A stretch of 64,000 nt of DNA from Ptychomitrium polyphyllum (lineage: Eukaryota). Positions 16,046-64,000 of the stretch are shown here, piece after piece. Position numbers and translations under genes: made by a program. The DNA lies in assembly GCA_973851085.1 (NCBI GenBank), contig OZ316775.1, forward strand, positions 18,972,001 to 19,036,000. Reading direction: 5' to 3'. A model generated the notes under the pieces. The model was not told where the DNA came from and made no database searches. It saw only the letters and a list, made by a program, of their open reading frames with translations. Position 1 is the first letter of the stretch. Each line of letters opens with the position of its first letter.

Positions 16046-16329
16046 GGCTTTGTTGCAACGGATCCAGCGCCTTGGACGACACAAGCAGCTTCCGCATGGT
16101 CACAACTTAGTAATCTTCTCCAGTTCTGGACATACCCACCTGTGGATCTTTCCGGGTATCACTGTAGTACGCTCAGGGTATCAACTAAAAGGTGGATTCA
16201 GTGAACACCCCGTCAGATTCTTCGTTAGCATCAACTTGGTAGATATTCCACGAGATTCGTGGAATATTCTAAGATGCCATAGTCGAAACTACATGATATT
16301 GAGGTGATATTGTAATTATACTTGGGTGT

Positions 16330-20449: not shown

Positions 20450-20573
20450 CTCCCCCGTCGTCCCGCAACTTTTGAGATGTGTGCAGCAGCTTCAGCATTC
20501 AACGTCAGGAGCCACTGACTGTTCTTCTTGTTGCCGTTGTTTCCCTTTGCCGTGCTTGTAAGCATCCGACGCA

Positions 20574-21044
20574 ATGGCCAAGTTCCTCCTCCTCGTTGTC
20601 ACTCTTCTGGTGGTTGCAACTGTTGTAGCTGAAGCCAAGGCTGTAGCTGCGCCTGCTCCCGCACCGGCATTGACTTTACCACTCAAGACCGAGCTCTCCA
20701 TCAAGCTCATCCTTCACAATGTTGCAAGCAGACCCGTGACGTTCAAGCTGACGAGCCCCGTGGTGTCCAGCCCAGTGGTGGCACTCAAGGGCAAGTGGAC
20801 GGCCATTAAGCCTGCTCTTATCAGCGTTAAGCAGACCACCCTCCTCGTGTCCGTGTCGGTGGAGAACAACAAGCTCGTCACCATTAACAAGACTTTGAGG
20901 ATCAATCTGCTGCAGCACTTCAAGAAATCGGATCTGAAGGGCAAGAGGTTCCTAGTTCTGACCGCCGTGGAGAGCTGGAGCTGGAAATCTAAGTACCTGC
21001 TCATCACCGTGGGCGAAGTGGTCGTCCTCTCCATCTTGCTCTAA
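20574..21044 (+). CDS. Uncharacterised secreted basic protein, 156 aa (paralog A)
   Basis: Signal peptide MAKFLLLVVTLLVVATVVAEA, an APAPAP linker, G/C-ending codons, clear similarity to the ORF at 23792, and a putative GT-AG intron (21057-21205) just after the stop. Confidence 0.85.
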   Translation: MAKFLLLVVTLLVVATVVAEAKAVAAPAPAPALTLPLKTELSIKLILHNVASRPVTFKLTSPVVSSPVVALKGKWTAIKPALISVKQTTLLVSVSVENNKLVTINKTLRINLLQHFKKSDLKGKRFLVLTAVESWSWKSKYLLITVGEVVVLSILL

Positions 21045-23791: not shown

Positions 23792-24256
23792 ATGGCGAGA
23801 GCACTCTTCAGCTTAGTTCTGGTTCTCTTGGCAACGTGTGCCATCGCGGACGCGCACACGCTTTCAGCCTACACGACCACCGCGAAGGCTGCAAGGAAAC
23901 CTGCTTCTGTCAAGCTCGTGGTGCACAATGTGGCGGATAGGACGCTGACGTTCACTTGTGCGGAGCTTGGTAAGGATGCGAAGCCCGTGACGGCGGATAA
24001 GGGCCAGTGGACCGCCATCGGGCCCATTGATGTCACTGTGGAGGAAAACTTTATCCTACATCTGACTGTGACGGTAGGAACTGGGCAGAGATATGGGTTT
24101 GTGAAGAAGAGTTTGGTGATCAATCTGTTGAAGCAGTTTCAATATAATCTCGAAGGCAGCAAGTTCCTAGTTCTCACAGCAATTGAGAATGCGCGGGAGC
24201 GGTCGTTGAAGCTTAGGCTGGGGAAACGGGTGGTTCTTACATTCAATCTCTACTAA
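23792..24256 (+). CDS. Uncharacterised secreted protein, 154 aa (paralog B)
   Basis: Signal peptide MARALFSLVLVLLATCAIADA. Shares KLxxHNVAxR, KGxWTAI, INLLxxF and LxGxxFLVLTAxE with paralog A. Putative intron 24265-24405 just after the stop. Confidence 0.85.
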   Translation: MARALFSLVLVLLATCAIADAHTLSAYTTTAKAARKPASVKLVVHNVADRTLTFTCAELGKDAKPVTADKGQWTAIGPIDVTVEENFILHLTVTVGTGQRYGFVKKSLVINLLKQFQYNLEGSKFLVLTAIENARERSLKLRLGKRVVLTFNLY

Positions 24257-33600: not shown

Positions 33601-34175
33601 CTAACAGAGGACATTGAGAGAGACAGCAAAGGAAAACTTCTATCCGATGGCACATGGACATACAAGCCACCAACCATGGACACAATCCCACAGAAGTTCA
33701 ACATAGAGCTCTTTAACAGCCCTGCCCACAAAGCTCGTGTCTTTTCTTCAAAAGGTTTCTTCTCTTCATTATTATTTTACCAAACTCACCTAACTCATGT
33801 TCTCTTGCGTTCACTATGCTTGTTCAGAATTTGAACCACTTTGATTATTGATGAGAAGATTTTTCAGGAAAATATGCAGAATTGTTAACCAAGTGTTACA
33901 GTAGCTCAGACTAATGCCAGAATGATATGTGGCATGTAACAGCGGTAGGTGAGCCCCCTCTGTTACTAGCAGGCTCTGTATACTCCGCAATTCACAATGC
34001 TGTTGCAGCTGCTCGGAAAGACTACCTGGGTGCGGAGGCAGGTCGTGACACATTCGAGTTCAGCCCTCCTGCAACAATCGAGAAAATCAAGGCCTTATGT
34101 GGCTTTGATAACGTGGAGCGTTATGTGGAGGCAACATTGCAAACAACCAAAGTGTCTCATGGAAAGCTTCTGTGA
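27680..34175 (+). CDS. Aldehyde oxidase (molybdo-flavoenzyme, AAO-like), about 13 exons
   Basis: 2Fe-2S motifs GCGEGGCGAC, QCGFCTPG and GNICRCTGYRPI; FAD domain VRNWGSVGGNL; Moco domain FYMETQT, RRLGGGFGGKA, RAPG, EMGQGLYTKV, GSTTSE, DIGQVEGAF and SSKAVGEPPLLLA. Exons about 27680-27839, 28105-28937, 29041-29814, 30002-30098, 30224-30489, 30679-30884, 31080-31298, 31488-32243, 32426-32647, 32990-33079, 33352-33450, 33565-33754, 33943-34175. GGGFGGKA rather than GGGFGGKE favours aldehyde oxidase over xanthine dehydrogenase. Confidence 0.93.
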
Positions 34176-34771
34176 ATCGAAGTGCTATTATTTTAATCCG
34201 ACTGGGTTCAGGCATGGATGTGATTCACGAGCGGCCCAGGTTATAATGTAAGGATAAATCTGTAGAGCCACCGAACCGTAACTAATTAGTTCAATGTAGA
34301 CACAAGTGCATAGTTGTGGTGGACTAATGATGTTTGAAGAAGCTTGTAATGTACAAAATAACAGGTATTCTGTCATTGTGCAAGATACTGAATTTGAGAG
34401 GATGGCTAATTCATAGCACGGTGCTTTGTAGACCATAGGAAACTATCTACGTCGATTAGAAATGATGTGCGCATCGTGTACTGCAACGATCATTTACTTA
34501 CAAACTCGAAGTAAAAGCCATAAAATGAGCTTAGAAGTGGTCCAGAGTGAATCGATTTCGACTCACAAATCAACAGCTAGTGAAGCGTTTGATATTCGAA
34601 GAAGTGGAAGCCATTTTATAAGAAAGATCTGGAGATGGAGCAAGATTAACAGATCATGCATGCTCTACCAAAAACGAGGGTTGATGAAGACACTTTGGCG
34701 TTTTAAGAATTGTCTTCGTTAACCTTTGCCTTCACTTCTAAAACAATCACTAATCAAAAACGTCGAGAACG

Positions 34772-35188: not shown

Positions 35189-38171
35189 CGCACAACGGCA
35201 AAGCTACAATCTCCCAAGGAGAGGCCACATCCCGAGGCGATTGAATCAAAGTTCTCTGACACCAAAAATTCGGTTTAAAACTATGGCTGTTGAGATAGTG
35301 AAATAACTCTCTAGCACACCACGATCCAGTCAAAATGATGTATCAATGATGCAATAGTGTAAATAAACGGGTCCCATTCAGATCAAAAAATAAAAATTGG
35401 CGCAATAGTGAACTTATGCCTTCGACACTTGGTCAAGCAGAACCGAGAAGATACGATGGCAGCTATAGCAAGTCGGGGTTCCGTCGTATCATACATTCCA
35501 TATTTGTATTAGCCGCCGAATCAAACCACATTAAGTTCATATGCTTCAACATAGTGTTTACAGGGCATATTATATTGACGGCAGAGGACGTGGTTGAGCT
35601 AAAAAATGCCCAGTTTTCCGGAGATATCTACAGTTAGAGGCCTACATGATGCAAGGTGGAAACTGGCTCCAGTTCTCACTACCACGATCTCCTAGTTTCG
35701 ACGCGGCATGTAGATTGCTATAATGATTTTCGATATTCTCATATGATAGTGAGAATTCTTTAAACAAAATTGAGGGTCTCGTCCAGCTTTTGGAGATCCA
35801 ACTGGTTGCGATTCAATGTTAGCAGGAGGGTGAAGAGTGGAGGACTTTTGTCACCGACCTGCCAGAGGTTTCTTGGTGGGGAGGCACTCTGGAGGTGCTA
35901 TCGTCACGTCATACAAGCCAGTTGAAGGTCCGAGATTCCACACGCTTGCTGTGTACGACCCACCCCAGCTCATGTCAGCATTTCAAGGTACAAACCTTTA
36001 TGTTTGCACAAACTAATCCCAACTTAACTCAGACATCTCTGATGATGCAAATTTTGACCTCAATTACGGTTGCATAGCACGGAATGCACGGATGGCGCCG
36101 TGTTGGAGTTAGTACTGTAGTAGATGCCTTCACCGTGACAGACTGTTGGCAAACTGTAGTTATGTAGAAAGTCCTACAGAATCTCTCGCTTCCCCAAGTT
36201 TTAATGTAGACCAGTTCACTGACTGAACTGATACGCTTGTCCGACGTCCAAATTTTTTAATTGCATCGACAAGGGCGTCGTGGTTATTACGACTCTGTTC
36301 AGCTTTTGCGAGACCCTGTTGTTGGAAAACCAGCGCGAGGAAGTATTCGTACGTGATGATTCTGCAAGAGTTGTAGTAAATATTTACAGCGAGTTTTACC
36401 ACATTGTTTCTACTGTACTTTGCGTAACTCAACACCATTACTTACAGAATAGTTTTTCAACATTATGATTAGAATGAAAGAGAGCCTAGAACCACGGCTT
36501 TCCAAGTTCCACCTCTACTGCACGTATCGACAGAAGTTACGCAGGAGCCCCTGATTGCACCCGAGCTAATATTAGATTCAGTCGACATAGCTTTAGGCCA
36601 GGCTCGTCTGTAGAAACTACCTCTGGTTTCAGTAGATACCTCTTAAAATGTCGTCAGTAGATTCAAAAGTTGCTTGAATGCACATGAGTCACCATTATCA
36701 CCGACCCCAACAAGCCGAACATGGAAGCTACCTTGCGCATATATGATTGATTCGTTTAAAATTCCTTTTTCATGTGGACCCACACATCAAAAAGCCTGAC
36801 TAGCACAAGTTGCACGAAATGTAACTCATTTACATCCTGAAAGCGTGTCTCGAATCGCAGTGCACAATATGTAGCTCAAGTCACCCGTTCCGAGACATCA
36901 CCGGATCTCTGGTGAAGTCCCGATAATCACAAAATAATCTTGTAGTAGTATCTTAGGTTGTCGAGTCCTGTCCGTGTCGGTTCTTTGCCTTAGCCGGCAA
37001 ATCGGCTGAGGGTGTGAATAAATCTTTCTCCTTTCTGCAATTGATATGCAAAAATAAATATAATAAAATCATTAAAAGTAGAATCTATCCCAAATTGAGG
37101 AAGATTTGGCAGAGTGAAGGGGGCGAACAGACTGACATACATTATGACGATGCTTTCATGACCTGGTCATAGAACCTACTTCAAACGAGGATGAATATGT
37201 GCATACACTCTCTGCAATGAGTTTGCGCGTCCAGATCATCCGCCAGGCTGTGTTTAGTTTTGGGCATCATTTTGAGGAAACTTCCAGCGATGTGTTTTGC
37301 TTAATATGGCCTATGCAAAGGCTGACTTGGCTTCACGCCGTTACAGCAAATCCAGCGCCAATTTTGGCTCTAGTGTCTAGGATCCAGGGCTTACCTGACG
37401 ATATCGAACCTCATGATCAAAAGCAGACGTCTCCAACCTACGCTTCCATGGTGCAGTCCCACCTGAATCATGAATTATGGTCCAAGCAGCCTGTGATGAC
37501 GAGAAACCGAAAATCTCTTTCATGAGCAGAATCAGTTCCTACAGCAAAGTGAAGACTCAAGTGCACCGACAGAAAGTCGACAGTGATTAATCCTGTGGGA
37601 AACAGGGTTGGGCTCAGCACAGACTGTCTGTGACCGCATTGTAAGCTAACCTCTTCTCTTGGTGAGGCTACTCTCTCATTTGTGAGCTAATATATCTCTT
37701 CTAATGGTGCTACAACGGTGAAGAAGACAGAATAACGTCCACATTGATGAGGTGCAAGTGGTGTGCAAGGACACATGTGCAAGAACGTTGTGAGCCTGTG
37801 ACAAATGTGGAGGTTGTTAAGTCATCATGTTCAGTGCCGGGCCTGGCACTGCACAATGCTGCCAACATCAAACATGGTGCAGAGTACGTTCGTATTTGAT
37901 GAGGAAGTGAGAGTACGCCATAGCCTCCAAAGGACGGTGACGCTGGAGGCAGTTGAAAGTGTGAAAGCAGGCATTGGATTTACTCAGACTGCTGCTTCAC
38001 GAGCCCCTCTGCGCAGGCTTCCGAGAATGATCTCCTCTGCCGTGCAGTGGGCTTGCTCGCACAAAGAACAATCTGCAAGCAACGACTGTGTTCCAGATTT
38101 TCCCCACGGCCTGAATCTCTCCCACTACTGCGGCTGCCCTGCTTGACTGCTTGACCGGCTTTCCTTCTCAG

Positions 38172-38340
38172 CGATACTTTTCTTCTCCTTCCTTCTTTTC
38201 CTCTTGGCGATACTTTTCTTCTCCGTTCTGCTTTTCTACTCGGCGATATTTTTCGTCTCCCTGCTTCTTTTCCTCTCAACGATTCTTCTTCTTTTTCCAT
38301 TTCTTCTTTTCCCCTCATCGATTCTTCTTTCCGCTCGACA
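38172..38340. repeat. Pyrimidine-rich 36-39-nt tandem repeat, about 5 copies
   Basis: Units start with cgat at 38172, 38208, 38244, 38280 and 38319; the minus strand reads as E/K/R-rich. Confidence 0.8.
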
Positions 38341-38499
38341 ATTCTTCTTTTTCCTCTTAGTGAATCTTCTTCTCCACTACTCGTCTCCACTACTCGTTTC
38401 TATCCTTCCCTTTTTCCAAAATTTTATCCTTTTTTTTCATTATGCTAAGGCTTTTTTAAGAACTGGATTGTACTGCACTAAATTGTACATGACTCCTTG

Positions 38500-39950
38500 A
38501 ATTTAGAATAAATTAAATTTTAGTTATTAAGGGAATAAATTAAATTTTGGTTATTAAAGAAATAAATTAATTAATGCAAGACAAGGTATTGTAAAAAGGA
38601 TTGAAATATTATATTAGAAGTAAAGTATAAAAAATACTTTTTTGAAATCCTTGAAAAGTTATTAATTATTAAAATTTTGAAAGTTATAAACATGTAGTAT
38701 AGTATAGATTATATAACTTTCTTATCATGGAGTTGAAACATGATTTTTTTAATATGCTCAAATTCTCAGGTTTTATTATTATTTAGTGCATGATTTGTAC
38801 TTTTTGTAGTTACATTTTAAATTAGAATAATAGAATATACATAAATTTTTCCATACAATTACTGAATGGTGAATATTTGTATTTTTTTCAAAATGCAAAA
38901 AAGCATAACTAGAAAGCAATAATTTATTAATACTTCCTAATTTCAATAGTTCTTATTCCATCTTTTAGAGTTATAAACAAAAAATTAATTTTCTCTTATC
39001 AAACTATTATTTTGTCATAATACTAAATGTATTATACTTATTCTATATTAGTTTCCAATTTTATGCACTTGATATAATTTGTGTAAATTGTACAATCAAC
39101 AATATAATTTTTTTTTCCTTTACAATTACAATATTTTATAATTTTGACAATAATTGATTTGTATCATTCATATATATCTTTTCTAAAGTAAAACATTAAT
39201 TTCAAATAAATCTAAATAGGTTAAATTATAATTAGTTATATTTATAATATTGTAATCAAAATTTCAAGTTCTCTTAGATGTAGTTAATTTTTTTGAATGC
39301 ATCATTTTTTTGTCAAAATGAAATTCATTTTAAGGTTTTAAAGTCTATACAACCAAACCACCAATTTAGACTGACTTTCATAAATTTATTGTTGGTTATA
39401 AGTAGTTTCTTACATTTCACATGTATAAACATGTGTTAGAATTATTAAAGAATACTATAAATTTTATTGCCATTAAAGCTGGAATTTCAAAAATAAAGCA
39501 TACTTGTACTTTAATATAGTAGCATATGGAAATTTCTACAACTTCTTGTAGGCATATTCAATAGGGTTTACAATAAAACTAAACATGCATGCTAAAGCAA
39601 AATAGAAGAGCATCTTCATTTCAACAAGAATTTTGCTTAAAGATTTAAGCATCATTATTATTTGAATAATAGTTACAATGGTCACAAAATTTGAACCAAT
39701 ATCTCCACCAAAAGGTATGTTTCAAGGTTTATTTAGACCACAAAAAACAAAATAGTTCTAATAATTCATAATCAACTTACAACTGACTACTCAAAAAAAC
39801 TCTTGCTTCTTGGCATGTAGTGCTAAACTACCTAAGACGTAGATTTTTGGACTTACATCTATGCAGGGTTCTGTACAAGGTCTGTTGCTCCATTTTCTAC
39901 ACTGTCATAATTTTTAGATTTTCCATTTTCAGAAATTTTGAACTAGTGCA
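38500..39950. mobile_element. AT-rich, CG-depleted block, probably degraded TE sequence
   Basis: Abrupt compositional shift and no ORF of 60 aa or more in the track; family not identifiable. Confidence 0.35.
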
Positions 39951-41038
39951 GACCAAACAGTACCATTATGGTATGCAGCTGTAAATTCTGTCACTGGCCA
40001 CTGGGTGAGATTGACTGCTTTATTCCAGTACCTCTACATAGTGACATAACTTGTTTTTTTCTTGCCCTAGCATTTCCCAGGAGCCCATGACTGAAGTCAC
40101 CGAACAGGGTACTGTATCCCATTATCACACTCTTTTGGTGCTCATGGATTATGAATCTTGACGGGAACTGGTTGTCATTAGGGGGATGACAAGCAAAAGA
40201 AGATTTTGTTTCTGACAAAAATAACAGGTTACCAATGGCAGAGTGTTCTTCAACTTCTTTGGTTTCCTCAAAAACAAGATTTTAACACAAAAAATCATTG
40301 ATAAGAAAAAGGAGCAGAGAAAGGAACAAGAACACACTGTTTGATTATGAAAGGTTTCCGTGAATTGGGAGGTTGTTGGCATGATGTGACGTTTAAGCCG
40401 CTGCTACATAAAAGCATGCTACATAAAAGCATGAACTCAAACCTTAATACTTCTTTGTGATGGATTCCATTTCTCTACTGTAATAGAAGCCTTATGAAAG
40501 AAACTAACATGACATATCCTTCTCTCCTGAAGCCATGTAATAGTTTCTCATGTTTGCCATGCCTTTGCCTTCTGCTTATCATCAGGGTATTCCAGTGGAG
40601 TGACTTGTACTTGAGTCCTTGTGCTCCTACAATAGTTAAATACTGCAGCACGTGTGTCACTCTGTAAATTACCCACTTAAGAAAATATGGGTCTCAACCA
40701 ATCTGACATTTTAAAGCAGATTTTATAATTTAACACCACAGTGACTTAGTCTGTACAAAATGTTGCGTTAAAAGACCTTAATCATCTTATGAGGTTTTTT
40801 ACACCTTCTCTTTGCAAAAGATGGAAGAAGTTAAAAAATTTCAACCTCAAACATAAATATTTCAAATAAAGATAGTTTACAAGAGACGACAAAGACTTCA
40901 AAATAACTTTTTGGTAAGAAATGGTTTTTCTTCCATATATCATTTTAGACTATTATTCTAAGAATACTTCCAAAAAAGTCAACAAGAAAAGACTTTTATG
41001 CAAGTATTGTTGTCATGCAGCGACCAACTCATTTTTCT

Positions 41039-42322: not shown

Positions 42323-45300
42323 ATGACGGCCAACTCGGCTTTCATCACCAACTTGTTGATATCGTTTTTGGTGTTCGTTGTGCTGCTCCTGGTGTTTCTG
42401 ATTCTGTCGCGGCGGCCCGGGAACTACCTCGTTTATTATCCCCTGCGTGCGTTGCGTGGGGAAGGTCCGTTTGGGAGTAAGCGTGGGCCGTTTCAATGGG
42501 CGATAGATGCCTACAAGGCTACGGAGGAGGAGCTTGTGGCGGTGGCTGGGCTCGATGCCACTGTCTACATTAACCTCTTCACAACAGGTACTGGTTCTTT
42601 TTTCGGTATGCACAAACGAAGCCGTTTCAAAAGCGGTCTTTCAAATTTTTTCTTGGTAGCAATTCGAGGGGTTGTCTTTTTAAGTAGAATTTTTGTTCAC
42701 TCGTGTTGTGGCTTATCTTTCGGTTATAGGAACTCGTTTTCTTTTGTTCCTTGAAGTAGGGAAATGGCGAATGTTTTGTCTTTGCCGGATTCTTGAACCC
42801 TTGTTTTAAAGAACTTTAGCGCAAAATAGTGTCCCTTACCATTATGCAAACAGTGAGGACATATGCTTGGGCGGCTCACCTGATCAGAAAGGAGCTTAGT
42901 AGAGAACGATATTCCTTATGAAACTGTTAGGAGTGTTTAAGAAGAGAAAAGATCTTGAGGCTGCCCCTTGGAGTCACTTCTTGAATACCCAGCTTTCAGA
43001 AAGTTGCGGTTCTAGTCTCTAAGGACTTCGCTTGGAGCACATTGAAAGGAGCTATATTTTTCATGCCAGTTAGACCAACTACAGAGTAGAATGGCCAACT
43101 TACCTGTGTGGCTCAACGAGTTGACCCTGGGGAGAATCTATCAAGAAGCACCTTTCCCTGAAATACTCTCGTCTTATGTTTCTTTTTGGTGAACTTCTTT
43201 GCAGCATTGGAGATAATTGTGTACTCCGCACTCTTCTGCCTCCCTGTTCTGATCCCCCTCGCTGTCACGGATAAGAATAATGTGATATCAGCGGCAAAGG
43301 ATAAAAACTATACGTACTCAGCTTTCGATAATTTGGGCATGGCTAACATTCAGGTAAAAATTCAGAGAATTAATTTCAAGTTCTTTCAGCGAGGTAGCGC
43401 TTTACAAACTCTCAGTTCAGCGTATAGAAAATTCTGTAGAGGGATCAATAGAAGTGCGGGGAACATTGTTGTAAGCTGTTTTATTTAAATGCAGTTCTGG
43501 TGCTAGCCGAGGAGATGTGTCATTGATTTAAACGTGCTATTGATCCTTCTAACATACAGTCTTGTTATTATGAACAGCAAAACAGTGCAAGAATATGGGC
43601 ATTTGTCATCGGTGTATACTGGGTCTCCATAGTGACCTACTACTGCTTGTGGAAGGCTTACAAGAAGGTGTTCCATTTGCGGAACACTCTGAGTTCTTCT
43701 GCAGTGGCTCACCCCCAACAATACACCCTGTTGGTGCGAGATATTCCAGCAACCGAGAAGCATGAGACACGCAGTGAGCAAGTGGATGCTTTCTTTAGAA
43801 GAACGCATCCGACTACGTTTGAGCGTTGCTTGATAATGCGCAACTTCAACAAGGTGACGCCTGAAACCTCGCTTTTGCTCTTAATGTCGTCTGTGAGTTG
43901 TGCATTCTTTGTCCTGAAAGTTGTGAAAGGCATTCTTTGTGTTGATTGATTAGTTGCTAGATTATCTTGAAAACGAAAATGCAGTGGTCGTTGGATGGTC
44001 TGAAATTCTTCCTTTCAGTAGTTTATTTGAATCATCATTTTTCTTGTTCTAGAGCGCACCTCTTATCTTTGTTAAGGCTAACAAGTGACTTGCCTGATCA
44101 GGCCGAAAAGCTTTACAATGAGCGTGAGGCTGCGTCTAGGAAGTTGGAGCATGCTGAAGCAGTTTCTGGATTGTCCAAAAAAGCTGGGAGTGATGGTGTT
44201 CGCCCTATGCACAAGACTGGTTTCCTAGGCTTGGCTGGCCCAAAGGTCGACTCTATTGAATTCTGGACCAAGAAGATCCATGAACTCACGCCTTTGTTGG
44301 AGGAAGAGAGGAAAAGAGTTGCAGTAGATGCTAAGGAGGATGCTGCTCTTGTCATCTTTAATGACCGCCTCGCAGCTGCTGAGGCTGCCCAGGTAAAATC
44401 TTGTTCCTTGGTGGTTTCAAATTGTTATGATTTATGAAAATGTACTAATTTTTTGAGTTTGAGTTTGAGTTTGCTACATTGTGTTTCATCAAAGCTGACT
44501 ATGTTTGTGTTCATTGCAGTCTATTCATGCTGCCTATGCTCTCACATGGCGAGTGGAACCTGCAGCAGAGCCGAGGGAGTGTATTTGGGGCAATATGCAC
44601 TTACCTGCCTGGCAACGTTCGATTCGGCAGCCTATTGTCTACGCCATCACATTCTTCACAGTTGTTTTCTATATGATTCCTATAGCAGCGATTTCGGTCC
44701 TTACAACTTTGGAGAACCTGGAGAAGCTTGTTCCATTCATCAAAACCATTACTCGTATTAAAGCTCTCAATGCCATCCTGCAAGTAAGTAATTTAAAGTT
44801 AATCCACTTGAGCTTTACCGATATCTGAATTGGACGCTTCCAATGTCTTAATGCGTCTTCCTGAGAAGAACATCATTGTCTTCTTTGATGCATCAGTATC
44901 CTGACAGAAAAGTCTTCGTACGCCTTCCATTTGTGGTTATGTGCAGGCGTTCTTGCCTCAGCTTGCCTTGATCGTCTTCCTGGCGCTTCTGCCAAAGCTT
45001 CTTCTGGCTTTGTCGAAGGCAGAAGGAATCCCTTCGAAAAGTCATATAAGTAGAGCTGCAGCTGGCAAATATTACTACTTCATGGTATTTAATGTATTCC
45101 TCGGAGTCACAATCTTCGGTGCTGTTTTCGCCAACATAAACGGCTTCAAGGTTTTGATCAATTCTGGTACTCTCTCAGTGAGTAAGGTCGTCGATTTGTT
45201 CGCAAACAAAATTCCTCCGGCTGCGACCTTCTACATCACATATGTTGCACTGAAGTGAGTGCTACTGACATTTGATTTCTTCCTTGTCGCATTTCAAAGT

Positions 45301-46236
45301 TCTGTATTTTAAATGTTTGAGCTGAGGCTGCAATGTATTGGGTCTTTTCATGTGCCGGTGCTTATGACGATCTTTAATACTGTGTCTGAGGAGTTTCATT
45401 TTCTGACAAGCCTCTCTTTTTCTACTTGCGCAGGTTCTTCATTGGTTATGGATTGGCAATTTCACGTATCATCCCACTTATCATCTTTCACCTTAAGAAA
45501 AGGTTCCTCTGCAAGACAGAGCGAGAGCTGGAAGAGGCATGGGCACCTGGGCCGTTTTCGTACCACACCAGTGTGCCAGCTGACCTGCTTATCTTGACAG
45601 TGACGCTCTGCTACTCTGTAATTGCACCCATGATTCTAGTATTTGCTTTCCTCTACTTCTTCATCGGATGGTTGGTGTCGCGTAATTCGGTAAGAAGTTA
45701 TCCATCGCCTTCTTGTTACATTGATCATTCAATATTATTCCAAAAAGATTATGTTCTGTATTTGCAACTAGCAAAGATTCTGATGACATGCTTCCATATC
45801 TGAACCTCTTTGTGCGCTTGAATTGCAGGCTTTGAATGTCTATGTCCCTGACTGGGAAAGTAATGGAAGGATGTGGCCACACATTCACAACCGTTTTTTG
45901 GGAGCTTTGCTAGTTTCCCAGATCACATGTTTTGGATACTTCGCAATTAAGAAGTTCCCTCCAGTAGTCCTCCTAATTTTCCCCATTATAGCGACATACA
46001 TGTTCTACTTGTTCTGCAAGAGAAACTTCTACCCATCGTTCGCAGTCGTTTCTCTTTACGTTGCTAGTCAACCTGCAAAAGAGACGCCGTCAACTACCAC
46101 CATCGTCGAGGCTTATACACCCACTTGTTTGCTTGAGGGCGATAAGTTTGAGGATGCGGATTTCCAGGATGCAAGGTCTAACGTGACGTCCAGGAGTAAC
46201 TCCGGCATTATATCTCCGGCTGAGCGACATGTGTAA
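42323..46236 (+). CDS. ERD4: CSC1/OSCA-family mechanosensitive Ca-permeable channel, ERD4 (OSCA3)-like, 8 exons
   Basis: MTANSAFITNLLISF...LSRRPGNYLVYYP, AGLDATVY, KTGFLGLAGPKVDSI, AAEPRECIWGN, FYMIPIA, QAFLPQLAL, CYSVIAP and ESNGRMWPHIH. Exons about 42323-42587, 43205-43353, 43578-43853, 44102-44392, 44520-44783, 44947-45255, 45434-45689, 45829-46236. Confidence 0.93.
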
Positions 46237-48280
46237 CTTTTAAGATTGAGATTAGTTGCTCTCGGGAGTATTGCCCTCCTCATCGACTGTTCCTATGTTA
46301 GTATTTTCTTTCTAGTGCTCTCGAGCTTTCAAAACTGGTTGTGTTACAGTAGTATTGGAGCAGAATTAAGTATGGCTGACAATCTGTGGCAGCTGGCAGC
46401 GTTTTTTTTTGGTCAGGTTGGAATCGAAGAGAAATGGTGGAGGGCAGTGTATGTGTAGAGCAGGTTTGGGCGGAGATTCCTTTTGTAACAAAATTGATTT
46501 TGTATAATGGTTTGATCGTGGAAGCTAAAAACTCTTGTGAGTTACAAGTAGCGCTAGAATTAGAATATGTCCGTATAGTATGAAAACTATCTTAAGGTTG
46601 CAGATTATCTAATAATAATACCCTCACCAACTTACTTTTCTATTTGCTGAAAAAGCTGCTGGAATGTGCAACAGTATTCTAGCACTTCACCCTGCTTGAT
46701 CTCTTCAGGCTTAAGCTCAACTACTTCTCACAATTTCCAAACAGAGAACGTCATACTAGATAACTGAATATTTTCATTGGCATAAACGGCGATTGGAGCT
46801 GATTTTTCATCACTATTTAGTGCAGTTTCAAAGTTGGCAGATACTATTCACTCTGAAATTTTCACATGACATGGCGTGCATCAAGACTTCGTGGAGCACG
46901 GCCAGACCTCATAAAGAGCTAAGAGAAAAAATCACCAAAACATTACAGAGAAACCTCAAGTCCAGTGTACACGAATTTGAAAAAAATACGGATCTAGAGT
47001 TTAGGATTTGATGACGACCCCTTGCCACTCAAAATATTAGGCTAATTAACCCCTTTTCGATTCTCTTTCTCCCAGTGTCACAAACCAGAAGGGTGGTTTC
47101 TTGAAACATGATATTGGATGACTTGGATCGACTTGGGAGATCTTACGATTGTGGGAAGTTCAGGATTTCGGTGCCAGGCTTTGTCAGGGCCTTCACCTTT
47201 TCACTTCTCACTTTTGCTGTCGTTAGTTTCTGTCTGTACCGGATCTTGCTCTCTCCTGCTCTTGCTCCCTTCGCTTTCGCATCGCCATTCGCTGCTGTAG
47301 CTTGCTCTCCTTGTCACTCCGGCTTCTCATCTCTCACGGTTGGCCTTGTAGTGTAAGTTACTTCAGGTTTCATAGGATTTCGGGGCATGTCGATCAACAT
47401 ATTGCAGATGCAATCACAAAGCCTTCACAACACAAGCATATTGACATTGAAGCTGACGTTAAATCAAGAAAAACTGTTGTTACATATACCGTCCACTTCT
47501 AGTTAGCTTTGGTAGTATTTTGTTAGGCGATGGGTTTTCAGTGTCGGGAGGGGAGTGGATAAGGTCCTCGCCTATGATGCAACAATCCACAACAACGAAC
47601 ATCAGTAGAGAAGCGCTTAATGATCCAAGTGTTGGTTTCAACATTGTAATTACAGTAGCTAATAGAAATTTTGATTCTGGTGGTAGAGCGGACATTTTGC
47701 TGAATTGTTTTCACTTATTCTTCTTAGTGGTTGAAATGACGGGACCATCACTTTCTAAAGAAGCTTTAGGCTAAAATCCTTTGGATTTAATTAAGGCAAG
47801 TCAAGTCAATTGGATTTAGTCAAGTTAAGGATGTACTATGAGGGCAAAGGTCTTCAATTTCTAGATGGACAAAGATCTCACATTCTTGTGCAGTCAATAA
47901 TCCAATTCTTCAAATACTTGGTGGGACATCAAATTGGTTCTAGTATAATTTCCTTAGATAATTTGTCTTATCTTGTAATTTGCGTGGATGATTCCTAATA
48001 TATCTTTGAAGGCATAGATTGGCATCATCCAAAATTCATTGGTACATTTGCCTACTTTGTGGAAAAGGAGTACACTTTGCAAGTAGAAGGGAGGTAATGG
48101 TTAGTTAGTTTACTAGATTTGTTGTTTATAGGTATTGATGACAATCAAGAAATTTAAAATTCTTTCAACAATCATGAGGAATATGATACATCCAAAAAAT
48201 TGAAGATGACACAAATTGATAAGAATATAACTCAATAAATGTCGCTCTTTGTTTTCTACTTGTATGCCTATAATGCTCAT

Positions 48281-50447: not shown

Positions 50448-50786
50448 CTAGATCGTTTTCATGTCATCCGAAGCATTGATCTTCCCCTCATGATTGACGG
50501 ACAAGCTCATGCCCAGCTTCCGGGGAAGCCCAAATGCCTCCTCGATACTAAGGTCGTTGCAAGTGGGCTCAAACGCATAAGTAGAGCATATATACACCAG
50601 ACCCCCTCTCCACGCTAAAGAGCAGGACAACTTTTTGTTGGTAACGGGGTCACAATCACAACACCAGAACGCAGGGCCGCATGGGTCATCCATCGGGACG
50701 CAGCTCAGAACAATAGCTGGGGAGAACATGAGCAGGAGCACCACGACCAGCAGGCCTGGCAAGCATTTCGAGTTGCGGGTCGACAT
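50448..50786 (-). CDS. Small secreted cysteine-rich peptide precursor (knottin/ICK-like), 112 aa
   Basis: MSTRNSKCLPGLLVVVLLLMFSPAIVLS is signal-peptide-like, followed by CVPMDDPCGPAFWCCDCDPVTNKKLSCSLAWRGGLVYICSTYAFEPTC and a Cys-free tail. TATATAA lies about 130 nt upstream. Confidence 0.7.
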   Translation of the reverse strand: MSTRNSKCLPGLLVVVLLLMFSPAIVLSCVPMDDPCGPAFWCCDCDPVTNKKLSCSLAWRGGLVYICSTYAFEPTCNDLSIEEAFGLPRKLGMSLSVNHEGKINASDDMKTI

Positions 50787-50916
50787 AGCTAGCCACAGTA
50801 TGGAGCACAATGTCTGAAACTCGGAAGCGATCGACACCACCACAAGTGTACTAAACTCTGGGCTCAAGAAACGCTCACAAGTTGAATGCGAATGAGAGTT
50901 CTGGTTAAGAGGCACA

Positions 50917-50923
50917 TTATATA
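50917..50923 (-). promoter_or_regulatory. TATA box of the cysteine-rich peptide gene
   Basis: The minus strand reads caatatataatg, about 130 nt upstream of the ATG at 50786. Confidence 0.5.
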
Positions 50924-53900
50924 TTGATGCATGGGTAAGGTTCACAAGGTTTGAAACAGCATAATCTGTGCCGCGTTAGAGAACATTAATTTGTCATGCA
51001 CACGCGCAGAGCGTGTATGCATTAAGAGAACACAAGTTGCCCGTGTGCTACGAAAATTTGATGATACCAAGAACTCAGCTGGCAACAGTCCTTCACAACT
51101 CCTCTGTGAAGGTCACACTCTCGAAGGGCAGTGCGTACGATTTCAGAAAGACAACTTGGCCATACAGATTAATTGTTTCCAAGAGGAATTTGGACTATAT
51201 CGAAACCTTCTCAGCGTCTTCCAATATAGTACTTGGATGGACAGACCTCCATTCCTACCCTTCTCGTGATTGATGGTGATTGATGACAAGGAATAGTAGG
51301 AAGTGATTAAATGTACATAAAAATTCATTATCTATTGTGGTCCATGTGGGGTGTATTATGTGATGAGCTCTGTGTCCGTAGTTGAAAGGATCTTGTCATT
51401 CTATCATGTACAATGTCCAGACATTCAAGTCATCAATGAACAGCTCTGTCCATGCTGAAGGAAATTGATACAGTTCTCACGTTACCCTGTTTCGGCGCTC
51501 TACCCTCTGTCCGAAGTCACTGTGTGAGTTCGAGTACAATACACCCAAAATTTTATTTCAGGAATAGTTTACATATTTTGATCGTCTGGTAATAGTGTAC
51601 ATCAGATGAGATTCTGTCTAATTAATGGATGGTCAAATTAAACTTCTCATGCAAGCAAGACGCTCTTGTCCATTTTGGTGCAACAGCAAATTTGTGATTC
51701 ACTTCCCTCCACCAACTTTGCCCGTTGCTAATTCCAAGGTTCCGTTTCAAACCATAAACTACGAGCCTAGCAAATGAGCAGTGAAGACAACACTCTAAGC
51801 AAACCTCGAACGTGCAATCTATCATATGTAATCTAATCTCTGAACTGAGCGAAACAGCAATCTGTACTTTTAAGCAGTGTGAGACCAGTCACGTACTTCC
51901 ATACTTACCGTTGCAATGAGCCAGCTGATGCTAACTCCTTCCTAGTAACCACTCGATTCAAGACTTTGTCCCAGGTAGGAACCACCCTGTCAAGGCAAGG
52001 AGCGGCATTCAAACGCAGCACAGTGAGTGACCACGTCAAGCTGTTTGCAATATCGCAAACAGTATGTGGTCCTACGATTAAAGCTGCGCAGCTTCCATAG
52101 ACACCATCTCCTACAGAGGCAGTAGATGGTCATGGCAGTGCTAGCAGCTGCAACAGATTCGCATGAAGTCCATCCCTGGTTTTCTCCGGAAGCCTATGGC
52201 TTTCATGCACAAACTCAACCAGGATTTGATCCTGGTCGTTGAAACTCATGCAAAAGCTACGTGCTCATGACCAGAGTAAACACAGACCAGCCTTCCACTC
52301 AAACTCAGTTCTGATTCATGTCTTTGAGTGACAAGGCCTCCACTCGAGGGAGACAATTTGTGTGCTGTTTGTAGGTTCTCCAAGAGATATTTATCTTTAG
52401 CTTGAGTTTAGAAAATTTCTCAAAACTCCTTTATTCAAACTATGAACTATAGATGATTTCTGATAATTGTCTCTAGCGTTTCTACATTTTTATATTTTTA
52501 ACAACTTTGTTGTGGTTGTGGAAGTCACATATTATGATACATTTAAGGTGCATCAAATTGGATGTCACTTATTTGTATTAATATTTAATAATTTCTACTT
52601 TTTGTGAAATTGTTTTACAAAATGTTTATGCATCTAGGGCTTGTGAAAGTTATGCATAATGAAAATTAGATTTTGTGTTTTGATTTAAGGAAGTAGAAAA
52701 GGGCATTTGACCAAAAGTTAGTCTTGATATTAGAGTCTATGAGTGATTAGAAATCCTAAGCAAATTCCAAATATAACTATTATAGCAATAACACTAACAA
52801 AATGAGGGAAAGAAATGATGTAAGAATGACATCTTTTAAATTAACTTAATTCCCAAACTTTCACAGCTTAAAGATTATGAGAAGTTATTTCTTGTTCTAT
52901 TCCTTTATCTTGTTAGTTTAGTGTGTTCTTTTTCTAATCTTGTACAATAGTTCAACAATATCTTGTATAAAGATTGTATTTATAAAAATGTCACATTTAT
53001 ATGTGGCATTTTTTATCTCTTGTTTTTTATTAATTAATTGTCAATCTATTCTTTAATCTTTCTCTAACACTCTTTGAATTGGCCTTATTGATTTTTGTAA
53101 GAACATCATTCATGACAATTTCATATGCCATGTGTCGATTTTACAACTATTTTGTTATCATTCTTCTTTGATACTTTTTTTAGTTATTTGGCCTAGTTAT
53201 TTCGTTTTGTTTTAAAACAAATAACAAATCCTTAGTCCTAAAATATTTCAATATTTAATTAAAATTTTTGTTCATGAATGGATATGATTATTAAAGTGTT
53301 GTTAACCTTTAAAACTCTCATAGGAATAGTACACACATCAATTTAAATTTCACATTTATTGTGGCCATAAAGCTCCAAACTGGAATCCCAATAGCTCATC
53401 AGTACCACACTGGCATGAATTCTTTGACCTCATACCTGTAAAAAGTGTAGAATCGTTCCAAATCCAACAAAAGAATAACACAAGTTGCAATGACCTCTTT
53501 GTATCTTTAAGAAATTAAGAGTACAGAACTATTCTTAATATCCCAAAATGATGCCTCGAACACAGAGAAACATAGGCAAGCTGTGAAAACCGACCTTGTA
53601 TCAGCAACGTCATGCCGATGTCAGCCTGTCTAAATATGGGAATATTCTGATATTATGGCTTGAAACAATGCAGAGATAACCGTAGTCTGTTATGCAGCTA
53701 CCTATGTAGAGAAGTCCCTGGATCCTCAACACCAGGACGTTTTCAATCCTTGCCTGAAGAAAATTTCTTGAGAAGAAATTCAAATTTCTTTTGACGGCAT
53801 ATATTGAAACCAACCTCAACTGCAAGGTGTGAAGAACCGCAACTTAGCGACGGGACGGGAAAGAAAGAGAGGAAAGATAAGAAAAGAGAAACCGAACCTA

Positions 53901-55192
53901 AGGACTCAAGCCCAGCCAACCCACCCCAGTCTCAAGATCCGGAGGGAATCTGGCAAGCTAGTATCGTTTTATGATTCTTCTAAAGATTTCTGCAGCAATC
54001 TGAACGCTATTCACAAGCTTTGTTCACACTGTGGTCTTCGGTGAGACCGAGTCCATTTGCGGCAACTCGTTCGTGAAATCCGGTCACTCTCTACGAGATG
54101 TGCGTTCGAGAAAATTGTCTGCTGACATTCGATTTCTTTCAGTACATACAGCAAATGAGATTGTCCCTTCTTTTATGTTAAATACCTGGACACAGATATA
54201 TTTTTCAAATGGGACCATTATTACAAGTTCGGCAATAAAGCATTCCTACATCAAGAACTATGTGGAGTTTACCGTCGCAGTTCATCTAGATTCTTTAAGT
54301 GTTGCTTGTCGTACTAGAAGAGAGGCGGGATTTGTACACTAACCATTGACACTCAGATGTGGCCAGATTCACTCAAAACTCCACTTCAGGCCAAGTGGAC
54401 AGGTCCCTCGTTTATTGTAGTGTCACCAAAGTGACCCAGACCAAAAGCATAATCCCGACCATCCACACCCACAGCTACTGGAAGCGTATGTACCTGGCTT
54501 TAGTGCAATATTTTCTCAACTTGAAAGATGTGACTGCTGGCGACTTTTGTTAGATCTGCAAATACAGTAACTGCCGGATGAGAAACTTACTTGCTACCAG
54601 CAGAATAAAAGTATGCCACTTCAGGTAGTTTCTTATATATGTCTAATTATAAACATTATGCTGAATGACTGCTCCCAAGTGCGTACAAGTATTGCAACTC
54701 ACACGAGGTAACGTTCCTCGTCCTCATTGCTGTCTTCTGTCGCAGAGGTCACAAATCTGCACAGTAGTTTAGACACTTCGTTACCGCAAGGGTTAATTAT
54801 CCAGTTTCCAAACGGTTGATAGGTTTGACGGCAAAGCACCAACTTAAAAGCTGCGTTTGGCAATGGCGACATAACACATGGAACAATATTATATTACTAT
54901 GACAAATAGAGTACGAGGCTTTTAGAGTCAGATTCTCCTCTTATGACAGAGTCAATCTGCAACTTGCTCGATAGCCTTTGATAGACTTTGCAATTGAGAC
55001 AGTCCAGTATTTAACCAACATCACTTAGCCACCTCTCTCAGGTTTCAACCAGATTACTACAATCTGCTTCGCAGTTCTGCAAGTCTATCCATTCTACAGT
55101 AGAATCTCAACGCAGTACTATTGCGGACTAGAAGTACAGTTTGTAGGTGCAGCTGAGTATTGTATTTGAGAAAGGACTGAGGCTTGAAGGCG

Positions 55193-56749
55193 ATGGGTTC
55201 ACCTAACCAGCGAACATATTGGCTGCTTCTTCTCGTCGCCCTGACGAGTGCTCTTAGCCGTGGCAGCTCCGCAGCAGCAGTTTGCAATGGTGTCGACAAG
55301 CAAGCCTTGCTAACATTCAAGAGTCAGCTGATCGACAGCAACAAGTTTCTGGATCCATGGAAAACAACCACAAATTGTTGCACATGGCCGGTAGGGATTA
55401 CTACTACTCTCCATCGTCATATATCACAAATACTCATCGACTGCTGAATCAATACTCAATCAGCTCTGTTGAATTTTTGGATTTTTTGTTGTGTTGTTGG
55501 CAGGGAGTGACGTGCAATGCAGCGGGACGAGTCACCAAATTGTTCCTTCTCGACCCTACTGCATTTCCGGATGCTGATCTCAACGCCAATATGAAGATGA
55601 AACCCGGCCTCTAGGGCGCAGGGGCATCGCTGGGAGCTCTGAAAGCCCTGCAGCAGCTTGAGTTACGCAATGTCGCGTTCAACTTCGCTTACCCAGTTCC
55701 TCGAGAGCTTGGCTCGCTACCGGCTCTTACCTCGCTCGTCTTCATTGGCACGCAGTCCATTGGCCCCATCCCAGTCGAGCTTGGCAACCTCAAGACAACG
55801 TTGTAGGCTCTGATTCTTGATGGCAACAGATTCCCTGATGGCATTCCGGTAACACCCGCAGCACCTCACGTGATCACTCCTCCTTTAAGTCCTATGAGAT
55901 CGCTCCGATTGTCCCATTCTTGGAATTAACCTAATCCGGTAATCTTGGTGAGCAGGATGTCTTCGGTGACCATGCAGCTCTGACTTCATTGATCGTCAGC
56001 AACAACCAGATGAAGAAGATCGGCTCCCAGCGCATCACGATGCTGAAGAAGCTGGAAGCCTTCGACGTCAGCACGAACTTGCTCTCCGGACCCATCCCCA
56101 CGTGGTTGGGCAAGCTCACCATCAGCGACTACATCGAGCTCGGGCAGAAGCAGTTCTCGGGCTCTATCCCGGGAGATTTCTGCATCATCCGAGGCCTCAA
56201 GCGCATAATTATCTTCGGCACCCAAGTAACGGCCATCCGCCCCAGATCGGTAACTGCACAACCGAAACGGAACTCGTGCTCTTGGACAACAAAATCGCAG
56301 GGAAGCTGCCCTTGAAACTCGCCAAACTGAAGAACTTGCAACGGTTTTCCGTGAGATTCAACCAAATGTCGGGTCCTCTGCCCCCGGCACTTGGCGACCA
56401 GCCATTGCTCAGAGAATTCGATGTTGGCCACAACAAATTCTCCGGAAACATTCCTGCCAACTATGGTCCCTTTGACGAGGATGAATTCAGCACAAACTTC
56501 AGCGAGAACCAGTTGTCAGGTAACAACAATCATAAACCCTAAGCCCTGATCCCTGATCCAGACTAGATCTGTGCACATGAATGAAATGTTTGGTTGCGAA
56601 TGCTTACCAACGGAAATCATGGTGGTTCTTGTGCAGGTCCGATTCCGAAGCTTCTGAGCAAAATGCGTATCGCCGTTTTCCGGCCCGGGAACGCTGGCCT
56701 TTGTGGTGCACCACTTCCAGCGTGCATATGCAATTTCAGACACAATTGA
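55193..56749 (+). pseudogene. Secreted LRR protein (PGIP-like) pseudogene
   Basis: Signal peptide, LRRNT cap (CNGVDKQALLTFK...WKTTTNCCTWP/GVTCNAAGRV), plant LRRs (GPIPVELGNL, NLLSGPIPTWLGKL, NQMSGPLPPALG) and the C-terminal cap NAGLCGAPLPAC. In-frame TAG at 55612 and 55804, plus frameshifts near 55860-55950 and 56240. Confidence 0.88.
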
Positions 56750-59700: not shown

Positions 59701-61669
59701 TGCAACAATATCACACTTTACAAGTTCTACAGTAGTCAAGGGAAAGTGTGGATTAGCATACAGGGTGCTGAACTAGGGCATCAATGGTTTAAAATGGATT
59801 AAAATGCTACTGTACTTGAATGGTACAGACATCACCAGCTATGCAACCTGCAAAGGTAAGACCATCCTCACCCTTGGAGTTAAACAACACTGCATAATGA
59901 TGCTAAAACCTTCACTTGCCACGGCCTGACAGCAGAGCAAAGCGTGACCTTCTCATCTCCTTTGGAACCTTCTAGCTCTATTACTTCCAGCTTCTAGGTT
60001 TGCTCCAGTAAGTCTACGGAAACATAATGTTGTTAGGTGCTGCAGATCACTAATATTGTTAACAACCAGCAAGGGTGCCTCACTTTGTTTATACATATAA
60101 GTATGATCCCAAAATGGTTTGCACCATTCTTCACACTGCGCTCATCAACGCTAACGCTATACTTTGAACTGTGTCTTTTGCCAAAACTCAAATTTGGGAG
60201 AGCTGCTTAGGAACCAGGGACAGGAAGGGAAATGGATTCATTTTACCGCTCGTACTGCTCACAAACCGTACCTTTTCTCTCCTGTTCCTGTTCTCCTTCA
60301 GAGGGACTTCTCTGGTGACATCTCAAAAGTGGAATTAATTAGAGTCACGGACTTTCTTTCCTCTTCCTTTCGCACAAATCGAGCTTCATTTAATTGCAAA
60401 GAGTGACTAAATTGCAACTTTTGCTCGAAGTTGTTTGCTGTCGGCAAGACCGTCTTGCAATTATGAAGATTCATTTTGCTAGACTTCGTAGGTGTTTTAT
60501 AATCTCAGACAGTTAGCTTTACTTGTAGGCAGATACAGCATTACTAGAATGTTTTTTTGAGAATTATTATGAATAATTCAATAAAGAAGAAACTGATAAA
60601 TCTATGCACGCTGGTTGGGATGCTCGTGGTTCTATGAGTCGCAGAATACATCTTTTTCGTGCACGTGACTGAAGAAGCCACGGCCTGCCCGTTCAAAAGC
60701 AAGCCCCGCGAGAATTGACCTCCGCCGCAACACCGCAACCCCAGTTCCCAATTCCTCTCCGTTCCGCTGCGACGACAGATCTCATCCCAAGGCTAACATT
60801 CATCCACCTGCCAGATCCACGTCCGAATAGGATTAGACCGCACTGAGTCACATCTCTGAGAAATCCTCCGCTGTAGATACGTGGCGCAAAAACAACCGAG
60901 ATAATCTCTTTACCCACGTGGGAGGCCGATTTCAAAACCGCCACCACAACCCAACTATCGACAATTATCTACTGATTCAGAACAAAATAAGTCTACGTGA
61001 ATCATAGATAAAGTTGTTTAAACACGAAGACGGTTTGTGACCGGATGTGGATCTAGATTTACGTATGAGTTGCAGATTTCAGAAAATGAAATAAACTCCA
61101 TGTGTACATAACGGCCGTTTTTGGACATAGAGACGGTTTCGGGTATTGGCCTCCTTCACAGACGAGGAAGATAATATTTCGTTTCGGTCGTGCCACGTAT
61201 CCATGGAGGCGGATGATCTTCGTGAACAGAGCCTCGGGCATCGGCAACCCTGAGAGGCGTGGCTGGCAAGCAACGAAGCCTGGTCATACGAATCGCTCGT
61301 AGGCCTTGCGTGGCAGATCTCGCTGTGGCCGCCTCTCACCACAAGGGTTTGATGCCGCGGTTCTCTACTTGCAGGACACGGTTTGCTAGTTCTAGAAGAG
61401 TCTCGAAGCGACGGAGTCTGGATAGTTGTCTCGAGGAGTGGAGAGCTCTGGAAGTTTATTTATACGCTTGGAGCGTTTGCTGGAAGAAGTTTTCTATGAA
61501 ATCTTAGGGAGCCTGTTCTTGAGTCTGGCTGCGATTTTGTCCTGCCTTGTGCTGTTTAGGCGGCGAGTCTGGAGAGAAGTCTGGGAGTTGAGATTTTGTA
61601 GTTGATGGTTTGTTCGCTTGTGTTGACCGGGCTTCTTTCGGAATCCGGGCTTCGTTGTTGAGTCTGGCT

Positions 61670-64000
61670 CTTTTTGCAGGGCGCGGTTTGTGATCTGTAG
61701 GAGAAAGGGTGGGAGTTTTGGTGTTGGAGGAGTATCGAGAGTTTGAGGGGTTCGGGAGTTGGTTGATTCGCTCGGGACATCGGCAGGAGATTATTACGCA
61801 GGCTTCTTTAAGTTCCTAGAGACGTCGGTTGTTGAGTTCGGCACGGTGCTCTTTTGGTTGCGAGTTTTTTCTTGTGTGTGCGGCTTGCTATATCAATGAT
61901 TTGCTGTATGGCAGATCTAGGTAGACTCGCAGTGGTTCGGAGTGTACATCACGCTATGCGGCGCTGTGGTGGGAGAAGCGATTGGGAGATGCTAATTCGC
62001 TCGAGACGGTCGCCTGACAGGCCCTTCTGGAACCCTTGATGTTCGTGCTTTTTAGCTCGTCGCGTGAATTGTTCAGCTCGCGATACTTTTGGGTTTTTGT
62101 ATCTCTGGGAGAATGGAACAGATACGCGGTTATGGAGTGCGTTTGTTGGGAGCCTTGAAGTTTGGAGAGCATTTGGAGTATTTTAATTCGTTCAAGATGG
62201 CCGACATGCGACTGACAGGCTTTTTTGCAACCTCTTACACATCTTGGTTCAAAATTATCGCCCGCGTAGACTATTGACCTTTCATTCTGATATTGTTCGG
62301 CGAAGCTAGTTGCTTCCCTGGAGAACTGGCTTACCTTACGAAGAACTGGCTTTTCTGAAGAACTGATTTTGGTTCATGCATGAACTTCTGATTGTCAGAG
62401 TCGCACAGATTTGTAACGATTCGAATGTATCTACTCTTGGGGTGTCTGGACTATTTTAATTCGTTCAAGATGGCCGAATCGCGACTGACAGGCTTTTCTG
62501 AAACCCTTCACATACTTCATTTCAAGCTTCCAATCTGCGTTTTCCTTTGACCTATCGCAGCAGTCCGTTGATTTGTGAAGATCGGACTTATTGTTCTGCG
62601 TGATGCTGGTTCATGCGTGAGCCTTCTGGTTGGCAGAGTAGCCCACATCCATCAGCTTATGGGCGCATGCATGTCTTGGGGGCGGAGGACGTACGGAGTA
62701 TTTTAATTCGTATGAAGATTTCACTCCTTCCAGACGGCTGACTGCCAGGACTCCACGAACCCCTTCGCCCTTCTGCTTCTAGCTAATCGCATGCGCTGCT
62801 TCATACATATGTCCCTTGCGTTGTGATCTGGTTCATCGTTGAACTTCTTCTGGTTGGCAGAGTTGCGGAGTTCCGCATCAGTATACATCCGACACTCGAT
62901 GTGCGTATTCCTGGAGTTTGAAGGACGTTAAACTCGTTGCAAGATCTAGCCCGTGCCAGTCGCTGCATCCAGGCTTTTTCTGGAACCCTAATCATGATCC
63001 TTTTTGGTTTTAGTCGAATTGATCTTTTTATATAGCCCTTTCAGTACTTTGTATTCATCGATAAGCTGTATTTGACTTTCGTTTTCGCAGTCGGGCGTGA
63101 ACAATCTGAAGAACGCTAGTATTTAAACTGAATTTACTCGTCTGGAGTTTAATTCGCTTCTGACGGTTAACATACAGGGTTTTTTTGAAACCCCCTTAGA
63201 TTTAGCTTTAAGCATGTTTTGGTCTTATAGTTTTTTTCAATAGAAAATGACGGGCAATCTAGTTCATTGGTTATCTGCTTTTGATTGGCAGACGCGCTCT
63301 AATATTCCAAAGATGGCGAGTACTTTTTGTACGCAGCTTGTACCGTGAAGGAGATTTGAAGTTCTAATTCATACACGACGGCCTACGCACAGGCTTTTTT
63401 TGAAACCTTTCCCTTTGGATTTTAATCATAAACCTGTGCTCCCTATGCTCCCCATGCTCCCTTACTACTGTGGTTTATCAACCATGTTATGCTTTGCAGT
63501 TTACCGAGTTCTGTGATGAGTTACAATACGAAATGTGATGGTGCTATCCAAAGAGCGATTTTCTGATTTTATTTCGTTAAAAGATTGATTAACAGGACAT
63601 TTTGAATCCTTGATGAATCGTTGAATTTCTAGCTTTTGTAACCTTTGAGCATATAAGGGGTGATAATTTATCGTGAGTTGCTACAAGTGTCGAAGGTGAC
63701 TGTCTGGCAGAGGGGCATAGATCTACGCTTAACGGGAAGTGCGACCTGGAGCGGAGAAATTTTGAAGTATTTTAATTCGTTGGAAAATATTCGTTTGACA
63801 GTCGATGGACTCCTGACAGGCGTTTTTGAAACCCTTTACATACTATTTTTGATCACTTCATTTCAGCTTCCTGCACCAGTTAATTGGATGCACATTTGTA
63901 TGATGTGTTATTATCAAGAGTAGCTGGAATCTTTCTTTCACAAATCCTCTGCTAGTGTTTCTGGTTCATCCATGATCTGCTCTTGGTTGGCAGAGTCACT
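61670..64000 (+). repeat. Array of at least 10 diverged 200-280-bp modules with conserved ordered motifs; continues beyond the window
   Basis: YAG ends at 61679, 61914, 62121, 62398, 62636, 62860, 63090, 63291, 63499, 63710 and 63993. YTRATTC-like motifs at 61763, 61992, 62183, 62456, 62703, 62928, 63149, 63364, 63569 and 63772. CAG|G ends at 61801, 62020, 62218, 62491, 62748, 62972, 63177, 63392, 63595 and 63819. Confidence 0.85.

Follow-up and report, generated by a model that had tools for sequence, protein, structure and literature searches.

In Dscam1, mod(mdg4), lola and the clustered protocadherins the tandem units are coding, keep the reading frame and carry donors or poly(A) ends, and the snoRNA and miRNA clusters of plants are polycistronic. 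Mammalian NORAD, as described by Tichon et al. (2016, PMC4947167), has, over 3.5 kb, approximately 12 tandem units of ~300 nt that have diverged from one another; each unit resembles its counterpart in other species more than it does its neighbours, and the units contain ordered short motifs, Pumilio elements and conserved hairpins. The decoy exons of retained introns, described for SF3B1 and OGT (Parra et al. 2018, PMC6097662), often present several competing acceptor sites, bind U2AF and splice poorly, and a GT donor is needed for their function, since retention was lost when GT was changed to CT. The same article also cites caspase-2, in which a decoy 3' acceptor stands alone.

We analyzed a 64,000-nt stretch of DNA (the window) from the moss Ptychomitrium polyphyllum, the 3' end of which (61645–64000) is occupied by an array of 11 units, ten whole and the start of an eleventh at ~63956. 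The array is real and conserved, and no annotation of it was found in the records searched. Like the alternative-exon arrays, it consists of tandem duplicated units, each with an acceptor-like site, that follow birth-and-death evolution; unlike mutually exclusive coding exons, its blocks do not keep frame, half of them (12/24, both records) are interrupted by stops in all three + frames, and no donor was found. With a run of short modules downstream of a single promoter-like region, the array recalls plant snoRNA and miRNA clusters; it differs from them in having no Rfam match, no folding signal and, in the alignments, no conserved C/D or H/ACA layout. As in NORAD (as portrayed in PMC4947167), old tandem units are conserved in order between species, but those of the moss contain splice-acceptor-like motifs, lack supported hairpins and have no sequence relation to it; no Pumilio elements are apparent in the anchored unit consensus, to which this statement is confined. 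With the decoy exons as presented in PMC6097662, the array shares conserved non-coding cassettes with acceptors, here by sequence score only; those exons are single and lie in large introns of coding genes, whereas here 11–15 units stand in tandem with no host gene visible. The array was not classed with decoy exons because the GT 5' splice site that such a cassette carries is absent from its units. No description of such an array was found in the open-access literature.

The units are ~190–275 nt long and, measured from CAG/G to CAG/G, recur with periods of 198–273 nt, bearing out a preliminary description of this DNA in which at least ten units with ordered motifs were said to recur every 200–280 bp. 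Reading 5' to 3', each unit contains a U-rich stretch, a site designated B (mostly GCAG), a block, a TTTAATTCG-type motif, a site designated D (CAG/G) and a gap that opens with TTTTGAAACCCT- and TTTCAAG-type motifs. From YAG to CAG, the blocks of units 1–10 measure 122, 106, 107, 93, 112, 112, 87, 101, 96 and 109 nt; nine of these lengths are as first given, and the third, given as 97 nt, takes that value if AACAG at 62121 is chosen. The motif pair originally placed at the start of the unit (GGTTCAT..TGAAC) is present, but it is well kept in only about half of the units and the hairpin suggested for it is weak. When the units of a second, homologous array (L001, described below) are included, block length ranges from 76 to 129 nt and gap length from 91 to 180 nt. 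Purine content is higher in the block than in the next gap in 20/20 units (a4, a5, u10 and a15 fall outside this pairing), while T content is higher in the gap in 19/20; the T fractions of 0.28 for blocks and 0.40 for gaps are near those of the exons (0.26) and introns (0.37) of the aldehyde-oxidase gene in the window. Identity between the unit at 62174 and that at 62447 is 74% across 110 nt. Upstream of unit 1, a weak profile match at 61429–61489 (E=1.9) and a B-like GCAG at 61316 may mark a degenerate extra unit within 61250–61490. Coordinates are collected in Table 1.

Table 1. Features of the window. B, end of the AG; motif, branch-like motif; D, end of the CAG.
Feature	Position	Strand	B	Motif	D	Remarks
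Acetyltransferase gene	2966–7180					Intact; 9 introns, joined exons open
Aldehyde-oxidase gene	27680–34176					Intact; 12 introns, joined exons open
ERD4/CSC1-like gene	42323–46237					Intact; 7 introns, joined exons open
Promoter-like CpG-rich region	60600–61200	+				Densest ACGTG cluster of the window
Putative leader	61200–61644	+				GC-rich turning T/G-rich; weak donor candidates 61266 (GC type), 61381, 61608
Unit 1	61645–61821	+	61679	61763	61801	
Unit 2	61880–62040	+	61914	61992	62020	Best match L001 a1
Unit 3	62077–62238	+	62111 (decayed to GAG)	62183	62218	CAG at 62121; family expanded in L001 as a2–a7
Unit 4	62364–62511	+	62398	62456	62491	
Unit 5	62601–62768	+	62636	62703	62748	Best match L001 a8
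Unit 6	62823–62992	+	62860	62929	62972	Best match L001 a9
Unit 7	63050–63197	+	63090	63149	63177	
Unit 8	63256–63412	+	63291	63364	63392	
Unit 9	63465–63615	+	63499	63569	63595	Best match L001 a12
Unit 10	63676–63839	+	63710	63772	63819	Best match L001 a14
Unit 11	63956–64000	+	63993			5' part only, truncated at the window end; similar to a15, with which L001 closes

L001, the sole locus recovered from one metagenome scan, is 3348 nt long and contains 15 countable homologous units, a degenerate piece and nothing else; by homology it likely comes from another moss. Its best blocks are ~80% identical to those of the window, and the order of units in the two arrays is collinear (Spearman 0.94, p=7e-5; collinear chain score 281 vs 169±24, p=2e-4) in a test of 10 window units against 13 L001 units, with a6 and a15 left out. 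Among eight collinear pairs, the motif segments are 0.62–0.66 identical as against 0.45–0.52 after shuffling, whereas the variable 5' part of the block (0.57 vs 0.53) and the middle of the gap (0.48 vs 0.47) are at shuffle level. Since the motifs are kept and the spacers are not, selection seems to act on the motifs and their layout rather than on spacer sequence; the collinear pairs and saturated spacers support the proposal, made in the preliminary description, of tandem duplication with selection on the motifs alone. Few non-coding loci preserve their internal order between diverged plants when their spacers have reached saturation. Within L001, the central motif is duplicated at 18-nt spacing in a14 (3000–3035), and a degenerate partial unit precedes a5 at 900–945. 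The source contig of the window extends 6152 nt beyond the window end by its record coordinates; no L001-like piece was detected in those 6152 nt by a test that recovered the central motif of only 4/10 known units, a weak hint that the array may end soon after unit 11, as L001 does. A viral scan with the motif returned no loci and one with P0125 returned a single locus (L005), while a prokaryote scan returned three (L002–L004); none of L002–L005 has a profile match at E≤1, and these were set aside as chance.

Splice-site matrices were built from the 28 introns of the three intact window genes, whose joined exons are open to one stop, and site B was scored as the best AG within 15 nt. Scored in this way, which is partly circular because AG-like sites were selected visually as the B and D anchors, B has a median acceptor score of 6.9 (n=25), compared with 5.6 for true acceptors in leave-one-out scoring (7.9 in sample) and with 3.4 and 1.6 for random positions in the array and in the window; D, at 3.6 (n=24), differs little from random array positions (p=0.07) and is a weak acceptor. 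A YTRAY sequence lies 13–45 nt upstream of D in 17/25 units and of true acceptors in 21/28, as against 5/23 for B and a fraction of 0.34 for random array positions. These scores and counts indicate that B provides the tract and D the branch motif. The 3'-splice-site-like signals reported earlier are supported by these results, although the branch-like motif said to precede each CAG/G is found in those 17/25 units of both records and not in all. An exact YAG is present at B in 18/25 units, and a YAG within 15 nt in six of the other seven is little above chance (0.59 each).

CAG/G itself is kept in 21/25 units, the base preceding it varying. The base that follows is C in 16, A in four, G in one and T in none of these 21 sites; T is elsewhere the usual change from C (0.59), and its absence after CAG/G has a p of about 0.012 in a test that rests on five substitutions and was made post hoc, after the data had been seen. 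No donor was found at a conserved place on either strand in the units of the window array and L001, and weak donors inside the blocks are no better than those of shuffles (3.0 vs 3.6). Good GT donors number one in the window array (0.43/kb) and nine in L001 (2.72/kb), with a background of 2.88/kb. Ordinary cassette exons, one of the options first entertained, are not supported because no conserved donor exists. Splicing gives no explanation for the conservation of the TGAAACCCT and TTTCAAG sequences after D or of the TCG that follows the branch-like motif.

We propose, with a probability of about 0.4, that the array is a series of + strand, non-coding decoy modules with exon-like features, at which 3'-splice-site factors bind but for the most part do not bring about splicing. 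Such an array would resemble NORAD in its construction and decoy exons in its action. Non-coding transcription of the + strand would start from the ACGT-rich region at 60600–61200. U2AF, SF1 and U2 snRNP would bind the transcript at many sites, the units appearing exon-like to the 3'-splice-site machinery and, for want of a usable donor, holding factors at many sites with little splicing. Binding would be non-productive because D ends as an exon does but has no T after it. As part of a stand-alone lncRNA the array could serve as a multivalent sponge or scaffold; alternatively, it could promote retention of a leader intron belonging to a gene that lies past the window. Transcription, factor binding and effect are all inferred here from the layout, its conservation, the signal scores and the lack of a conserved donor. 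If the units do bind 3'-splice-site factors without splicing, they would constitute a natural test of donor-less acceptor recognition, and the locus would be a candidate global splicing regulator in mosses. A more specific version, in which a moss-wide lncRNA with 11–15 donor-less pseudo-exons and an ABA/desiccation-type promoter titrates early spliceosome components as a splicing-factor sponge, is possible but unlikely; a multivalent splicing-factor sponge RNA was not found for plants in the open literature.

The putative start region of this transcript contains eight ACGTG/CACGT sequences in 600 nt, the highest density in the window, and its CpG o/e exceeds 1. It holds two of the seven ABRE-type matches of the window (60879 and 61192) and two of its six G-box matches (60662 and 60915), these ACGTG-type sites being what we take to be ABRE and G-box elements, and it may represent a stress- or ABA-responsive promoter. 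Both ABRE-type sites lie in the arms of a 23-nt inverted repeat (60863–60885 and 61192–61214). A second inverted repeat, of 13 nt and 92% identity, connects the putative leader (61271–61283) with the first motif position of unit 1 (61645–61657) and could reflect docking-type pairing or chance.

Among the alternatives, the units might splice productively, an option already raised in the preliminary description, with one upstream donor joined to any B or D site as a ladder; a gene or lncRNA would thereby have graded leaders or a choice between alternative end exons. The acceptor-grade B sites and the branch motif and CAG/G of D fit this arrangement, and weak donors (AAG/GTCTTC at 4609 and AAG/GTTTCT at 33755) serve real introns in the window genes of this moss, so weak leader donors could work. 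Against it, no GT donor within 60700–61640 reaches the lower quartile of true donors, the units share no frame downstream of B (all three offsets, 0, 1 and 2, are represented), and no reason was found to keep 20–30 equivalent acceptors; we regard it as unlikely. Were the units to splice, the locus would present a 20–30-way acceptor choice or a non-canonical donor array. The latter would treat each B-to-D segment as a cassette or constitutive non-coding exon, possibly circularised, with a non-canonical donor (CAG/GC, GA or GG) and the U-rich gaps as introns. Exon/intron-like alternation in all 20 units compared, the overlap of gap lengths with those of window introns (103–1097 nt, most <300) and the fact that CAG/G is the preferred exon end all favor such exons. 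However, all 28 verified window donors are GT, D reaches the score of the weakest of these in only 4/24 cases, an intact CAG in the array is never followed by GT, and a branch-like motif within the exon would be unexplained, which leaves this arrangement decidedly unlikely.

A third alternative holds that the array is the relic of a coding repeat, or encodes a series of short peptides in which the motif xFNS(F/L)x...LTGFFETL recurs. In two motif blocks pN/pS is lowest in frame 0 (0.75 and 0.69), and two motifs are mutually in frame in 13/23 units (p=0.019; 14 with the unit-3 anchor corrected), although counting distinct lengths leaves 7/13 in frame (p=0.10). A peptide profile of the in-frame units gave nine matches, of which six are unit-like short ORF products on contigs of 1.2–3.0 kb from JGI, ENA and Logan and the other three are unrelated repeat proteins. 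The six suggest that more arrays of this kind exist; since P0121 is close to an L001 unit, they are not independent evidence, and for the coding alternative they count for less still, being unnamed or hypothetical products, selected as in frame, whose upstream frames differ. Moreover, the codon-like signal is not significant against column shuffles (p=0.073 and 0.207), 12/24 blocks are closed in all three + frames, block lengths fall in all phases, and no ATG is conserved across units. None of 10/10 unit peptides matched Pfam, and protein searches, one of which is weak evidence, found no longer protein matching the units and returned the same six near-length matches. These results agree with the original view of the blocks as non-coding, and a coding origin appears distinctly improbable.

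At the DNA level, the array might be a set of cis-elements, or the remnant of an old satellite or transposon. TGACAG and inverted TTCA/TGAA half-sites recur, and the period is near nucleosome length. Opposed to this are the strong strand asymmetry of the array (AT skew −0.21), its conserved unit order and the results of copy-number analysis. In two runs of one sample, probably the source of the window, 60000–64000 is covered by one contig per run at even depth; no copies of the array were found elsewhere in the contigs of either run at 80% identity, a threshold below which copies could be missed, and only short stray matches were returned. Within the 64 kb the DNA unit profile matches only the array, with all remaining matches at E≥1.9, TRF reported no tandem array at the locus, and its CpG o/e (0.98 vs 0.69) reveals no depletion. 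The array is, at the sensitivity used, neither a satellite nor a dispersed element, and the many copies, uniform divergence and CpG loss by which an ordinary satellite or transposable element would be known are not seen; we consider a DNA-level explanation very improbable.

Small structured RNAs, the other option of the preliminary description, would make the array a polycistron of snoRNA-like, pre-miRNA-like or guide RNAs with variable spacers, a reading that is highly improbable given the unconserved spacers of collinear units, folding at shuffle level and the lack of an Rfam match. Rfam scans of the array, proposed at the outset, matched no family: nothing reached the gathering score, and only chance lncRNA and cis matches (E 1.5–8.7) were returned. 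A tRNA search returned none. Unit folding is no better than that of shuffles (mean z +0.23; gaps +0.19, blocks −0.20), and RNAalifold called 0 pairs on the unit alignment. Three motif pairs allow short hairpins to be drawn around them; the two drawn helices are paired in 64% of cells vs 62% after shuffling, and the hairpin before B beat chimeras at p=0.006 in one of 18 tests. Hairpins with apparent compensation on visual inspection did not stand up to comparison with chimeras and shuffles or to pair counts. Any likeness to tRNA arms, hammerhead cores, U11 and U7 ends, miR396 or TALE-homeodomain sites is loose, and no weight is placed on it here.

Elsewhere in the window, an exon of the aldehyde-oxidase gene shares 80% identity with a Ceratodon purpureus protein and 67% with a Physcomitrium protein, and the acetyltransferase gene is presumably HAT1-like. 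A leucine-rich-repeat gene at 55190–56720 looks broken by stops and frame changes. Small ORFs at 20562–21044, 23585–24256 and 50448–50975 (−) have signal-peptide-like starts; the first two seem similar, and no Pfam match was obtained for those at 20562–21044 and 50448–50975. Very AT-rich stretches at 16001–20000 and 38001–40000 (GC 0.27–0.31) are probably repeat remnants.
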